Source: Candidatus Bathyarchaeum sp. (GTDB lineage Archaea; Thermoproteota; Bathyarchaeia; Bathyarchaeales; Bathyarchaeaceae). From it: DNA of 64,000 nucleotides. Under the pieces are notes generated by a model. It had not been told where the DNA came from, made no database searches, and was given only the letters and a program-made list of their open reading frames with translations. Below, piece by piece: positions 17,704-24,371 of the stretch (positions are counted from its first letter, which is position 1; each line of letters begins with the position of its first letter). The position numbers were made by a program, and so were the translations under genes. The stretch covers positions 3,886-67,885 of the forward strand of contig JAOZIF010000136.1 of assembly GCA_026014495.1 (NCBI GenBank). The letters are read 5' to 3'.

Positions 17704-18522
17704 ATGAAGACTCAGGATGTTCGTGTTCTTGTTATGCGGGTTGGTGGAACAAACTGTGACGCCGAAACCCAACGAGCCTTCACTGAATTGGGCGCACAGG
17801 CACAGGTGCTTCATTTCAACGAAGTAATAAAAAATCACAGCATTCTAGACTATAACGCGCTTGTGTTTCCGGGCGGATTCTCGTACGGCGACTACGTTAG
17901 GGCTGGAGCAATCTGGGCAACAGGAACCCTAACTAAACTACGTAAAGACCTCAAAGAGTTCGTTGAACAAGAACGACCAATTCTGGGCATCTGCAACGGC
18001 TTCCAAGTATTAGTCGAAGCAGGGCTGCTACCTGCCTTTAATGGAATAAGCGAATACCCAAAAGCAACTTTGGCAACTAACATTCCAATTGGTTACCGCT
18101 GCAAATGGGTTTACCTTAAGCACGAGAACTCTGGAAACTGCATATTCACCAAAAACATACCCAAAAACAAGGTCATGCATATACCCGTAGCTCACGGCGA
18201 GGGACGTTTCTTGTTTGCAAAAGAAAACGAAAAACGTTACCTGCAAAAACTCTACGACAACGACCAACTAGTCTTTAGATACTGCACAAAAGACGGTGAC
18301 TACCCAAACGGAGAATTTCCAGTCAACCCCAACGGAGCATTCCACGACATAGCAGGCATCTGCAACCCACAGGGAACAGTTTTTGGCTTAATGCCACACC
18401 CAGAAAGAGCCTTTTACGGCTGGCAGTTGCCTGACTGGGCAAAAACCGAGCAAGCGCCAACGTTTGGAGACGGAAAACTGGTCTTCGAATCCATGATTGA
18501 TTATTTGAAGAAACGGTTCTAG
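17704..18522 (+). CDS. purQ: Phosphoribosylformylglycinamidine synthase I (glutaminase subunit)
   Basis: 272 aa. GFSYGDY, the catalytic GICNGFQ and MPHPER motifs are present. Confidence 0.9.
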   Translation: MKTQDVRVLVMRVGGTNCDAETQRAFTELGAQAQVLHFNEVIKNHSILDYNALVFPGGFSYGDYVRAGAIWATGTLTKLRKDLKEFVEQERPILGICNGFQVLVEAGLLPAFNGISEYPKATLATNIPIGYRCKWVYLKHENSGNCIFTKNIPKNKVMHIPVAHGEGRFLFAKENEKRYLQKLYDNDQLVFRYCTKDGDYPNGEFPVNPNGAFHDIAGICNPQGTVFGLMPHPERAFYGWQLPDWAKTEQAPTFGDGKLVFESMIDYLKKRF

Positions 18523-19424
18523 ATGGCTTTCAGGTCAGCTAATCTGGGTAGCCCTGTTCTGGCGCCAATCTTTGAGACACAGCGGGACGCAACAAAGTTT
18601 CCCAGCTTTCCACAATCAAACAAGTCCATTCCTTTGGCTAACCCGTAAATGAATCCTGCATCAAAAGCGTCTCCTGCACCTGTTGTGTCCACAACATCAA
18701 CCTTGTATGCTTCAATTGTGTGACTCTCTTTTCCGTCAGTAACATAGCAGCCCCACTTGCCACGTTTAACAGCAACCAACTTTGCGCCCAAATCCATGAA
18801 CGTCAACGCCCCTTCCTTGTAATCTTGTCCTGTAAGCAACTTAACTTCCAGTTCGTTAGGAAGAACAACAAAGCTTCGTTTTATTATCGGCTTTAGCTCA
18901 TCTAAACCCTTTTTTGCATATATTGCTCCGGGGTCAAAACAGACTTTCACGTTCTGAAGCCTAGTTATGAGCTGCTTTTGGGCATCAAAGGGCTTTTGTG
19001 CAACAAACGACGACAAATGCAAAAACTTTGCGCCAGAAAAATACTCCAAATCAACTTCGTCAAAGTCTACCTGATTGTTGACTCCAGCATCAACGTAGAG
19101 TGCCCGATCGCCGTTCTGGTCGATGTATCCCATGACCTTGCCGCTTCTGCCCATTTTTGTAACTGTTATTCCGTTGACGTCAACGCCCTCTTCTCTCAGT
19201 TCGTCTAAGAGGAATTTTCCTTCCATGTCAGAGGCAACCTTTCCAACAAACCCTGTCTTGAGTCCGAGCCTAGCCAGACCCACGATTGTGTTTGCTGCTG
19301 AACCTCCGCCAGAAATCTTAAGGTCAGTGACAAAACCTTCCTCTTCCCTTTTGGCTATCATGTTAACCTTGAAGAGCTTGTCCAAGTTGAGGGCACCAAA
19401 ACCTACGGCATCAAAATCCATCAA
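18519..19424 (-). CDS. PfkB-family carbohydrate/nucleoside kinase
   Basis: 301 aa. GGGSAANT and DTTGAGDAF are the ribokinase-family signatures. The gene overlaps the upstream Ftr-like gene by 4 nt. Confidence 0.8.
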   Translation of the reverse strand: MMDFDAVGFGALNLDKLFKVNMIAKREEEGFVTDLKISGGGSAANTIVGLARLGLKTGFVGKVASDMEGKFLLDELREEGVDVNGITVTKMGRSGKVMGYIDQNGDRALYVDAGVNNQVDFDEVDLEYFSGAKFLHLSSFVAQKPFDAQKQLITRLQNVKVCFDPGAIYAKKGLDELKPIIKRSFVVLPNELEVKLLTGQDYKEGALTFMDLGAKLVAVKRGKWGCYVTDGKESHTIEAYKVDVVDTTGAGDAFDAGFIYGLAKGMDLFDCGKLGNFVASRCVSKIGARTGLPRLADLKAI

Positions 19425-20338
19425 AACAGCCCCCGCAAACCTATCTTGTGTTTACCAAGTTTTCCGCCATAATTTCCTGCAGAAACACGGACAACGCCAT
19501 CAACAGCGCTTGCAGTTTGGATGCCCACCTTCATTGCTTGTTTAACTGCTTTCATTGATGTGCCATTGATTACAATTTCAGGAATATACTTTACGCCCAA
19601 CGGAACCTTAGAGCTTCTTCCCAACTTAGTCTTTAGGCTATGACAGTACGGATGGTTCGTGGTAGGGCCAATCAACGGAAACCGTGTTTCAGGCTTTGAA
19701 CCCGCAGAGCAAACATCAAACGGAGTTACCACACCCTCAACTTGGTGTATGGCATCTAGCGCCTTTTTTCCAGCTTCCATAACTGCCCGTTTGGTTTTGC
19801 ACATAAACCAGAAATTGGCGCCCATAACTCCCCTTGCGTAACCCAGCTCGTTTTCTATCAAAAAATTAGAGACCATCAAAGGAACAACAATCAACTCTCT
19901 TCCGTAACGCTCTTCTGTCCACTCGTAGCCATCTCCACAGTGACCAACCCGCTCCATCATCCCAATCTTGCCCTCAGACTTAGGAAGCGCATCAAAAACA
20001 GCAGTGAACGGCTTCACCAAAATGTCTTGCCGTAGCCTAAACGACAACTCTGCCTCAAACTTTTTCAGTGAACTTTCTAGGGGCTTGTTTTCGTCGATGC
20101 CGCCCCAAAACTGCAAAATTACGCCTTCTCGTTTGTCTGGCGTTTCTTGTTTGTTTAGGTATTTTTCGATGCCGCCTTCTGTTCTGCCGATTACTATTGC
20201 AGGCGTGGCTGTTGCCTGTTGTGCAGCTTTACATAAAACTTCAATATGGCCTGCGGTGACTATGACTCTGGAATATAATCCGTCGAAAGCTTCCGCGTAG
20301 GTATCTTCGATTTCGGCTTTCATAATGTCCCCCTTCAT
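19421..20338 (-). CDS. ftr: Formylmethanofuran:tetrahydromethanopterin formyltransferase family protein (Ftr or Ftr paralog)
   Basis: 305 aa. EIEDTYAEAF, ETPD, GDGY, EIVINGTS and VSAGNYGGKLGKHKIGLRGLF are collinear with M. kandleri Ftr as I recall it. Confidence 0.85.
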   Translation of the reverse strand: MKGDIMKAEIEDTYAEAFDGLYSRVIVTAGHIEVLCKAAQQATATPAIVIGRTEGGIEKYLNKQETPDKREGVILQFWGGIDENKPLESSLKKFEAELSFRLRQDILVKPFTAVFDALPKSEGKIGMMERVGHCGDGYEWTEERYGRELIVVPLMVSNFLIENELGYARGVMGANFWFMCKTKRAVMEAGKKALDAIHQVEGVVTPFDVCSAGSKPETRFPLIGPTTNHPYCHSLKTKLGRSSKVPLGVKYIPEIVINGTSMKAVKQAMKVGIQTASAVDGVVRVSAGNYGGKLGKHKIGLRGLF

Positions 20339-22857: not shown

Positions 22858-22883
22858 TAAGGCTCACCATAACATATGATTGG

Positions 22884-24371
22884 TTATTTTACGGAAGATT
22901 CGTATATTCTTCCTTTTTCGCTGTAACCGTTCTCGAATCTTTCTTTCATTTCGTCAGCCAACTTTTGGGCTAACGGGGTTGGATACTTGCCTGTAATACA
23001 ACCCAGACACAGGTTTTGTTTGTCTAAGCCTGTTGCTTTAACTAGGCCATCAACGGACTGGTAGTTCACGGCGTCTGCGCCCACGATTTCGGCGATTTCT
23101 TCTGCGTCGTGTTGTGAGCCTATTAGTTCACGGTAGGTTGCCATGTCTACGCCGTAGAAGCAGGGTCCGATGATTCTGGGGAATGTGATGAAGAGGTATA
23201 CTTTTTTTGCGCCCATTTTGCGTAGTTTGGTGACTACGACTTTGGTTGTGTCGCCTCTGACTATGCTGTCGTCTACTACTGCGACGTTTTTTCCTGCGAG
23301 TTTGTGGTCTACGATGTTGATTTTTCGGTCTATTGTGTTGTATCTTTGGTCTGAGAGTAGAATAAAGGCTCGTTCTGCGACGTATCTGTGGCGTCTTGAG
23401 GCTCTTTCCCATCTTATGCCTGTTAATTCGTGGTATCCGTAGGCTGCGTCGTTTCCTGTTTCGGGCATGGACATTATAATGTCCACTTTGCTTGTGGTTT
23501 CAGGGTATTCCCATGCAAAGTTTCTGCCAAACTCTTCTCTAACTTCATACACGTATCTGTTTCCTAGTCTTGAGTCTGGTCGGGCAAAGTATGCGAATTC
23601 GAATGCGCATAGTGCGTGTCTTTCTCCAGGGCATAGTTGTTTTCTTTCGAAGCCGTCTTTTTTGGCGACTACAAGTTCGCCTGGGTTTACTTCAAAGTTG
23701 AAGTCAAAACTGTTTATGTCAAGGCCCACGGTTTCTGATGATACGGCGCAGGTTGTTCCGTTTTTGCTGCAGCCGCAGCATAGGGGCCTTATTCCTTGTG
23801 GGTCTCTGAAGGCAAAGAGTTCTCCTTTTTCTGTCATTCCAGCGACGGAGAAGGCGCCTTCGATTTCTTTCATGCACCGTTTTACTGAGGAGGCTAGGTC
23901 GCCGTCTTTTGTTTGTCTTAGGAGTTTTCTGGAGATTAGTTCTGCGTCGTAGTTGAATCGAAAGTTTGGGGTTTCTTCTTGTATTTCTTTTATTATGTCA
24001 GGCGTGTTGACGACGTTGCCGTTGAAGGCGATTGCTATTTGTTTTTCTCCTCGTTTTTCCATGATTGGTTGGGTGCTTTTTACTAGTGACTCGTAGTCTG
24101 TTCCGCCAGATGTTGAGTATCTGACGTGTCCCAATCCTACAGATCCAGGAAGTTCTGTTAGCCATTTTTGGATTTCTTCCTTTTTTACTTTGGGAACAAG
24201 GTCCAAGCCTTTTTGGCTGTGGAATGTTCCGTCGTATGTTAAGAATCCGTGGGATTGGTGGCCGCGGTGGTTTTGGGATCGCAGTCCCCAGTATATGTAG
24301 GGGAAGACTGGTTTGTTTGTGAAGTCTTGTGCTGCGAAAACCCCGCATGCCTCTTTTAACTGTTCGAGCAT
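22884..24371 (-). CDS. purF: Amidophosphoribosyltransferase
   Basis: 495 aa. N-terminal nucleophile context EACGVFAA, the PRTase loop VAVVDDSIVRGDT and C-terminal Cys ligands are present. Confidence 0.9.
   Translation of the reverse strand: MLEQLKEACGVFAAQDFTNKPVFPYIYWGLRSQNHRGHQSHGFLTYDGTFHSQKGLDLVPKVKKEEIQKWLTELPGSVGLGHVRYSTSGGTDYESLVKSTQPIMEKRGEKQIAIAFNGNVVNTPDIIKEIQEETPNFRFNYDAELISRKLLRQTKDGDLASSVKRCMKEIEGAFSVAGMTEKGELFAFRDPQGIRPLCCGCSKNGTTCAVSSETVGLDINSFDFNFEVNPGELVVAKKDGFERKQLCPGERHALCAFEFAYFARPDSRLGNRYVYEVREEFGRNFAWEYPETTSKVDIIMSMPETGNDAAYGYHELTGIRWERASRRHRYVAERAFILLSDQRYNTIDRKINIVDHKLAGKNVAVVDDSIVRGDTTKVVVTKLRKMGAKKVYLFITFPRIIGPCFYGVDMATYRELIGSQHDAEEIAEIVGADAVNYQSVDGLVKATGLDKQNLCLGCITGKYPTPLAQKLADEMKERFENGYSEKGRIYESSVK

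Follow-up and report, generated by a model that had tools for sequence, protein, structure and literature searches.

The third step of de novo purine synthesis, formylation of glycinamide ribonucleotide (GAR) to formylglycinamide ribonucleotide (FGAR), is carried out by PurN, with 10-formyl-tetrahydrofolate as donor, or by PurT, with formate and ATP. Neither enzyme was found in Methanobacteriales, Archaeoglobi and Methanopyrus kandleri, and no known GAR transformylase takes formyl-tetrahydromethanopterin (formyl-H4MPT) as donor (Brown 2011, PMC3261824). The absence of PurN and PurT was also reported for Archaeoglobales, Methanobacteriales and the anaerobic methanotrophic archaea ANME-1 (Chadwick 2022, PMC9012536). 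The same study describes, separately and without connecting the two observations, an uncharacterised clade of formyltransferase paralogs, Ftr2, in ANME-1, ANME-2a/b, Archaeoglobales, M. kandleri and Methanothermobacter. In Methanothermobacter, EhaS and EhaT are cotranscribed with ehaA-R, the genes of the hydrogenase Eha (Kaster 2011). Here we analyse a stretch of 64,000 nucleotides of Candidatus Bathyarchaeum sp. (contig JAOZIF010000136.1), called the window below, in which an EhaR-like protein of the haloacid dehalogenase (HAD) fold, an Ftr2 and a PfkB-family kinase, together the trio, follow purF and purD. Judging from sequence data, this module probably accounts for step 3, as a non-orthologous replacement of PurN and PurT.

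The five genes purF, purD, EhaR-like, ftr2 and pfkB are tightly packed on the minus strand, as the initial annotation had described (Table 1), with junctions from −4 to 26 nt. The gap is 26 nt between purF and purD, purD and the EhaR-like gene overlap by 1 nt, a gap of 3 nt precedes ftr2, and ftr2 and pfkB overlap by 4 nt. Database entries start Ftr2 at Met6 (position 20323), which is probably the true start and widens the third junction to 18 nt. From gene spacing alone, we infer that the five genes are co-transcribed. The genes for the FGAR-consuming enzymes, purM, purS, purL and purQ (13597 to 18522, plus strand), are convergent with this unit, the stops of pfkB and purQ overlapping by 4 nt. 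Profile searches agreed with the initial annotation that steps 1, 2, 4 and 5 are encoded in the window, and that neither PurN nor PurT is among its proteins; purF scored slightly below the equivalog cutoff of TIGR01134 (328 against 350 bits). None of the three trio proteins has the domains that define PurN or PurT, i.e. Formyl_trans_N, or a PurT-type ATP-grasp with PurT_C.

The source genome is a metagenome-assembled genome (MAG) of 2.19 Mb in 196 contigs, 93% complete, and the window lies on a 72-kb contig. A profile search of the whole genome gave no match to PF00551 (Formyl_trans_N), and the best PurT match, of 28 bits, is a methanofuran biosynthesis gene (an MfnD-like ATP-grasp gene beside an MfnF-like gene). 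FolD was not found in this 93% complete MAG. A second, canonical Ftr, called Ftr1 below, is encoded on contig C59 (PF01913, 186 bits, against 147 for the window copy in the genome search), and the window gene is thus not the sole Ftr. Also present are Prs, Mch, the MfnD/MfnF-like genes, FwdA as fragments at contig ends, and a PurH consisting of the inosine monophosphate cyclohydrolase domain only. PurP, the formate-dependent synthetase of 5-formaminoimidazole-4-carboxamide ribonucleotide, is encoded by two tandem paralogs (C69:25273-27452, locus L008), a near-canonical copy (581 bits) and a divergent one (335 bits); such tandem pairs are widespread in Bathyarchaeia, whatever the type of GAR transformylase. 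This inventory therefore describes an H4MPT/methanofuran C1 pathway and a formate-dependent formylation of 5-aminoimidazole-4-carboxamide ribonucleotide, without a recognisable enzyme for GAR formylation. That a PurN or PurT gene was simply missed is hardly credible. A genome of 196 contigs and 93% completeness leaves some room for it; against this, 54 PurD-containing relatives share the absence, several of them at or near 100% completeness or on a single contig, and the trio occupies the very slot after purD.

Ftr2 holds both lobes of the FTR fold at full length (PF01913, 145.7 bits; PF02741, 185.3 bits), and aligns full-length to the structures 1M5H, 1M5S and 1FTR (E value of 2.5e-57 to Archaeoglobus fulgidus Ftr). 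Its 334 bits on the NF002554 subfamily model are over the cutoff, and it scores below that of the TIGR03119 equivalog for canonical Ftr (231 against 292.6 bits). In a tree of 55 full-length representatives, gathered by searching 1.84 billion proteins, the window protein fell into a clade of 11 representatives, the branch to the Ftr1 clade having a 99% SH-aLRT (Shimodaira-Hasegawa-like approximate likelihood ratio test) support; the C59 copy fell into the Ftr1 clade, and the distinct paralog anticipated by the initial annotation is therefore borne out. The catalytic glutamate, whose role was described for Glu245 in M. kandleri and Glu252 in FhcD (PMC6926001), is Glu254 here; all of 40 Ftr2 sequences have it, as do 28 of 33 Ftr1 representatives. 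The C-terminal motif GNYGGKLG is also kept. Residues specific to the Ftr2 clade, relative to the 33 Ftr1 representatives, are C134 (Phe/Trp in Ftr1), C180, E217, G224-P225, G51-R52 and W78. A set of three Ftr2-specific cysteines was discarded, as C210 and C232 are common in Ftr1 too, and only C134 and C180 are clade-specific. Close Ftr2 homologs carry the names Bathyarchaeota or Bathyarchaeia, and a profile made from non-Bathyarchaeial Ftr2 representatives retrieved mainly Bathyarchaeia again. An Ftr1-type representative was located in an mtd-ftr-fwdDBAC operon, unlike the context of Ftr2. A complex prediction for Ftr2 and the EhaR-like protein scored 0.01, which was counted neither way.

The distribution of these genes was surveyed in 151 Bathyarchaeia genomes, each at least 80% complete. 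Matches to Ftr were bimodal, the Ftr2 type having at least 53% identity and 279 bits, and the Ftr1 type at most 43% and 208 bits; the sole addition to the bit range of the Ftr2 type is a contig-end fragment in genome G058. Ftr2 was found in 59 genomes, PF00551 in 59, a PurT-like protein in 12, and PurD in 126. Among the 126 with PurD, 54 had Ftr2 only, 67 had PF00551 or PurT-like only, 2 had both, and 3 neither, a near-complete exclusion, in keeping with the replacement that the initial annotation had suggested. One of the two genomes with both drops out, since the "PurT-like" match of G001 is actually PurK. As for the 23 genomes without Ftr2, PF00551 and PurT-like, 20 have no PurD either. Switches of state occur inside families: f11 comprises PurT, Ftr2 and PurN genomes, and f21 has Ftr2 genomes alongside PurN-like ones. 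FwdA accompanies Ftr2 in 54 of the 59 genomes, and in lineages without Ftr and Fwd we found PurT (family f17) or PurN (genus g54).

The linkage of the trio to purine genes proved to be conserved. Ftr2 lies 1.1-1.2 kb from purD, on one contig, in about 50 of the 59 genomes, and the EhaR-like gene fills the gap. The slot after purD can nevertheless be occupied in several ways. The arrangement purF-purD-EhaR-like-Ftr2-PfkB is found in many genomes, purF-purD-PurT in G016, and purF-purD-PF00551-PurN-FolD in G097; a PF00551 protein directly follows purD in G047, and survey coordinates place PurN-FolD beside purD in G059. A further type, purF-purD-X-EhaR-like-PfkB-FolD, was seen in G034, G028 and G124. 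X is a 280-aa divergent relative of PurN (its best NCBIfam match, at 74 bits), which keeps the catalytic N-x-H-P and D-x-G-P, with an altered N-terminal G-x-G-S-N loop. In all, five genomes without Ftr2 (family f8, G028 and G124) retain the EhaR-like and PfkB genes. In place of Ftr2, the X genomes have a formyltransferase with a different fold, together with FolD, which generates its formyl donor; this is what one expects if Ftr2 does the same transfer from a donor that the cell already has.

Two classes of PurD scores were noticed in the survey: 220-270 bits in most Ftr2 or X genomes and in family f15, and mostly above 300 bits in canonical PurN or PurT genomes. This suggests replacement of the whole operon by transfer, rather than a single-gene swap. 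The window PurD belongs to the lower-scoring "archaeal" subtype, the companion of Ftr2 or X in the class; a canonical-type PurD is found together with the trio in G031 (397 bits) and at locus L095.

These data bear on a different reading, in which Ftr2 is a second formyl-methanofuran:H4MPT isoenzyme that inherited its place in the operon, and the GAR transformylase lies elsewhere, for instance the second PurP acting as a formate-dependent ATP-grasp ligase, or some unrecognised enzyme. The NF002554 score and the retained catalytic glutamate are in its favour, as is the divergent member of the tandem PurP pair in the source genome, and a plain Ftr isoenzyme is possible in part, given the Ftr2 genomes devoid of an Ftr1 match (see below). 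However, synteny alone cannot yield a near-perfect exclusion of PurN/PurT with switches inside families, and the same-slot swap of Ftr2 for a PurN-like protein plus FolD is left unexplained. Formyl-H4MPT, moreover, is not used by any known GAR transformylase (Brown 2011, PMC3261824). As to PurP, the tandem pair is also present in PurT genomes (G005, G016, G068, G103) and PurN genomes (G060, G097), and PurP has a single match in at least 14 Ftr2-only genomes and none in two, so that at least 16 Ftr2 genomes show no pair. We consider the isoenzyme unlikely, and GAR formylation by the trio the better account of the exclusion.

The EhaR-like protein follows the formyltransferases closely. Its gene is present in 64 of the 151 genomes, precisely those with Ftr2 or X; the survey found it in no genome with a canonical PurN or PurT. 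It belongs to the HAD superfamily, with motifs I to IV on a Rossmannoid core: the DCEGP and GDSITD motifs pointed out by the initial annotation are both there, and D16-x-E18-G-P, S115-T116, K220 and G242-D-S-I-T-D247 (with the acidic pair D243...D247) are invariant in 40 homologs. Motif I is unusual, D-x-E where the HAD standard is D-x-D. The AlphaFold2 model (mean predicted local distance difference test, pLDDT, of 93.5) has PDB entry 1Y8A, the A. fulgidus protein AF1437, as its nearest fold, followed by SerB-type phosphatases; the sequence match to AF1437 has an E value of 1e-27. We regard the EhaR-like protein as the putative partner of the formyltransferase, probably in phosphoryl transfer. 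Its C-terminal tail, R-K-x-V-R-G-x-x-x-G-x-L-G-COOH (20342-20380 in the window, pLDDT below 50), has R356, R360, G361, L367 and G368 invariant in alignment A5, and may dock into a partner. In G052 (L112:5393-7207), the C-terminal part of the protein follows an N-terminal FAD/NAD(P)-binding and 4Fe-4S region in a single fused protein of 604 aa; in this complete-looking genome, purD was not found and purF is seemingly truncated, with Ftr2 and PfkB intact.

The kinase has intact PfkB motifs, SGGGSAANT (the N-terminal GG) and DTTGAGDAF (DTxGAGD), and a PF00294 score of 176.8 bits. Matches with at least 50% identity were confined to Ftr2 genomes in the class survey. Copies with 37-39% identity are present in the five X genomes, where they adjoin the EhaR-like gene in the cases inspected, and copies with about 34-39% stand beside the module in X genomes and in three further Ftr2 genomes. 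The kinase invites a reading in which the two partners serve ribose or nucleoside salvage and supply phosphoribosyl pyrophosphate (PRPP) to PurF, PfkB being a kinase of ribose or of ribose 1-phosphate, the HAD protein a sugar-phosphate phosphatase or mutase, and Ftr2 an unrelated passenger. The best NCBIfam matches of PfkB are indeed a ribokinase and ribose-1-phosphate kinases, all under their cutoffs (TIGR02152, 160.5 against 299.65 bits; NF053626, 143 against 330; NF041134, 130 against 500). Pairs of a PfkB kinase and a HAD phosphatase do occur in heptose-phosphate metabolism, and at locus L091 an Ftr2 gene is near a PRPP synthetase gene. Yet a supply of PRPP would not be confined to genomes with non-canonical formyltransferases, and the EhaR-like protein adjoins, or is fused to, three different enzymes of the formyl-transfer type. 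The source genome, moreover, has a normal Prs, and the idea that the trio stands in for a missing PRPP synthetase was rejected on that ground. Salvage is thus quite improbable, compared to a role of the kinase and HAD protein in GAR formylation.

The EhaR-like alignment also retrieved 80 metagenome loci, most of which again link the trio to purine genes: Ftr2 is nearby in 53, nearly all with purD too, and X in 11. In one lineage, the EhaR-like protein is fused (964 aa) to, or abuts and is translationally coupled with, an ATP-grasp protein of about 560 aa, whose sole NCBIfam match is a weak one to PurT (L117:6201-9095, L118:3573-6346, L119:6309-9095). At L200 the EhaR-like gene is convergent with purD-purF. 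In a Thermodesulfobacteriota bacterium MAG (L199, 485-3381) the order is PfkB-PF00551 (PurN-like)-EhaR-like, followed by a UbiA prenyltransferase. The gene order of L199 recurs in L155, L187 and L193. At L092 Ftr2 adjoins PfkB and EhaR-like genes without pur genes, and at L198, from ANME-2, an EhaR-like gene is beside FmdE.

The initial annotation had mentioned a similar trio at the 3′ end of the eha operon of Methanothermobacter. This likeness is borne out in part, as regards the families (Kaster 2011), the label "energy-converting hydrogenase A subunit R" that JGI gives to many EhaR-like homologs, and an Atlas cluster of that name, which matches with a template modelling (TM) score of 0.90. 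By sequence and fold the window protein belongs to the EhaR family, its neighbours being purD and Ftr2 instead of an eha operon. The trio might then consist of accessory subunits or maturation factors of Eha, or of enzymes for methanofuran or H4MPT cofactor biosynthesis. The cotranscription of EhaS and EhaT with ehaA-R argues for it, and P0130, near MfnB-type genes, and the ANME-2 gene beside FmdE are compatible with a cofactor role. Nevertheless, profile searches found no hydrogenase genes in the trio unit or its flanks in the window, and none flank the trio in about 100 loci annotated against the reference set, where purD and purF are the genes that keep recurring nearby. A bacterium (L199) also has the module, and cotranscription with Eha would be equally explained if Eha replenished formyl-methanofuran (formyl-MFR) drawn for purines. 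An Eha or cofactor role is, for these reasons, very improbable.

One enzyme of archaeal purine synthesis has been missing since 2011, and the trio is, in our opinion, a strong candidate for it; phyletic complementarity and operon position are the grounds on which we hypothesise that it formylates GAR. As a hypothesis, the proposal of the initial annotation that the Ftr2 trio replaces PurN/PurT for formyl transfer is thus supported, and none of the outcomes it had listed as adverse (a purN or purT elsewhere combined with a sole Ftr, or no conserved linkage to purine genes) has occurred. Its other suggestion, delivery of a phosphoribosyl intermediate to purine synthesis by the trio, is conceivable. 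For Methanobacteriales, Archaeoglobi and ANME-1 the argument comes from the literature, in which, as far as searched, we found no paper tying Ftr2 or EhaS to purine synthesis, and nothing on the function of AF1437 or EhaR.

Several points weigh against this proposal. Six Ftr2 genomes show no Ftr1 match, and Ftr2 might therefore also, or instead, act on H4MPT. ANME-2a/b were reported to have both Ftr2 and PurN (Chadwick 2022, PMC9012536). At L091 (named Aenigmarchaeota), L093 and L197, neither EhaR-like nor PfkB nor purD genes adjoin the Ftr2-like gene, and the likeness of Ftr2 to EhaS is one of family. The surveyed genomes are related MAGs of Bathyarchaeia only, so that they count for fewer independent cases than their number implies and a Fisher value means little, and no absence from a MAG is ever certain. 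Finally, a plain formyl transfer has no need of two phosphoryl-transfer enzymes, meaning that the simple equation of Ftr2 with a GAR transformylase is incomplete.

If the trio does act in step 3, Ftr2 would be the formyl-transferring enzyme, as its Ftr fold and catalytic glutamate suggest, with the glycinamide amine as acceptor. The donor would most likely be formyl-MFR, and less likely N5-formyl-H4MPT, because Ftr2 has the fold of an enzyme that handles formyl-MFR, FwdA was found in 54 of the 59 Ftr2 genomes, and passing the formyl group of a formamide to an amine, with both amines primary, should lie close to equilibrium. In that case PurP would furnish purine C2 from formate, and formyl-MFR would carry carbon from CO2 to C8; C8 in Methanothermobacter is reportedly not labelled by formate. 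The HAD protein and the ribokinase-like kinase would be obligatory partners, moving phosphoryl groups to or from the ribosyl acceptor or product: that they always accompany one of three different divergent formyl-transfer enzymes suggests an unusual phosphorylation state of the acceptor. One may speculate on a "dephospho shunt", in which the HAD protein would remove the phosphate from GAR, the formyltransferase would work on the riboside, and the kinase would restore the 5′-phosphate, ATP providing the thermodynamic pull. In methanogens, Eha could supply the reduced ferredoxin that replenishes formyl-MFR, which purine synthesis would draw off, and this may be why EhaR/S/T are cotranscribed with Eha. 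The complete scheme, a third, methanofuran-dependent class of GAR formylation, made of an Ftr paralog, a HAD phosphatase and a kinase, passing through the riboside, pulled by ATP, and identical to EhaR/S/T of methanogens, is put forward tentatively, and is itself rather doubtful.

The other features of the window are listed in Table 1. A scan for promoters and terminators with bacterial consensus sequences gave chance-level matches only. A further gene encodes a 1057-aa fused restriction-modification enzyme, whose region (about 26000-30000) has 35% GC, against about 43% elsewhere, and looks horizontally acquired. A pair of full-length MoeA paralogs in tandem (418 and 409 aa), for molybdopterin or tungstopterin cofactor insertion, may bear on Fwd/Fmd. 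The pilus or archaellum genes that adjoin aIF5B/IF-2 are ordinary and unrelated.

Table 1. Purine operon, convergent purine genes and neighbouring features of the window.
Feature	Coordinates	Strand	Evidence
purF (step 1, amidophosphoribosyltransferase), at the head of the unit	22884-24371	-	TIGR01134 328 bits, GATase_7 and PRTase region
purD, GAR synthetase (step 2)	21448-22857	-	GARS_N/A/C, TIGR00877 247 bits
EhaR-like HAD-fold protein, 368 aa	20342-21448	-	weak HAD-IIB/Hydrolase_3 matches
Ftr2, Ftr-family paralog	19421-20338	-	PF01913 and PF02741, NF002554 334 bits
PfkB-family (ribokinase-like) kinase	18519-19424	-	PF00294 177 bits
purM (step 5)	13597-14685	+	TIGR00878 266 bits
purS (step 4)	15056-15328	+	TIGR00302 70 bits
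purL (step 4)	15325-17700	+	TIGR01736 684 bits
purQ (step 4)	17704-18522	+	NF002252 312 bits
Intergenic stretch 5′ of purF, presumed promoter region of the unit	24372-24585	.	open reading frame coordinates
Archaeal S-adenosylmethionine synthetase (MAT), divergent from purF	24586-25797	+	profile searches
Eco57I/MmeI-type fused restriction-modification enzyme	26349-29522	-	N6_Mtase, Eco57I, MmeI_Mtase domains
Tandem MoeA paralogs	35549-38036	-	
Type IV pilus/archaellum-type ATPase (T2SSE) and membrane protein (T2SSF), beside aIF5B/IF-2: first segment	7269-9787	-	
Same group of genes: second segment	9936-11714	-	

The locus and distribution data turn the gap noted in 2011 into a proposal that names its genes and can be tested directly. 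Should it be true, there would be a third, folate-independent route to FGAR, and the C8 atom of purines would be tied to the branch of the Wood-Ljungdahl/methanogenesis pathway that reduces CO2. If EhaR/S/T of methanogens were the same system, this would explain why no GAR transformylase is known in Methanobacteriales, Archaeoglobi, Methanopyrus, ANME-1 and Bathyarchaeia, and also the cotranscription of EhaR/S/T with the anaplerotic hydrogenase Eha. With the proposal true, EhaR/S/T would have to be reassigned from "hydrogenase subunits", the AF1437/EhaR family of HAD proteins would gain a function, and the routine annotation of thousands of genes as "formylmethanofuran--H4MPT formyltransferase" would be corrected, with a bearing on metabolic models of Bathyarchaeia and methanogens.

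Compared with known systems, the EhaR-like protein shares 25% identity with AF1437 (TM score of 0.79 by query and 0.92 by target), which is shorter (313-332 aa); AF1437 has no assigned function, and therefore gives fold membership only. The organism it comes from was reported to be without PurN/PurT (Brown 2011, PMC3261824), and its order, Archaeoglobales, to have Ftr2 (Chadwick 2022, PMC9012536). The core of the EhaR-like protein is like that of the phosphoserine phosphatases SerB and ThrH, yet with a TM score of only about 0.45, and it differs from them by the D-x-E motif I and an extra C-terminal domain. In ADP-heptose synthesis, the PfkB kinase HldE and the HAD phosphatase GmhB act on one sugar-phosphate scaffold, which the pairing of PfkB and EhaR-like proteins resembles.

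Ftr2 shares both Pfam domains, the catalytic glutamate and GNYGGKLG with canonical Ftr (1FTR, 1M5H, 1M5S) and with bacterial FhcD, and differs in forming a separate clade of at most 43% identity to Ftr1, below the TIGR03119 cutoff, with residues of its own; its genes stand with purD, HAD and PfkB genes, against mtd and fwd for Ftr1, and the acceptor would be GAR, in place of the H4MPT of canonical Ftr. EhaR, EhaS and EhaT of the Methanothermobacter eha operon are of the HAD-like, Ftr-like and ribokinase-like families, in one unit as here (Kaster 2011), and are viewed in the literature as Eha subunits without assigned role; the trio of the window stands instead inside a purine operon, without hydrogenase genes. 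With PurN and PurT, to which it has no relation of sequence or fold, the trio shares the inferred step and the slot after purD, and the two are almost mutually exclusive; it differs by two extra proteins, and by its presumed donor, formyl-MFR or formyl-H4MPT.

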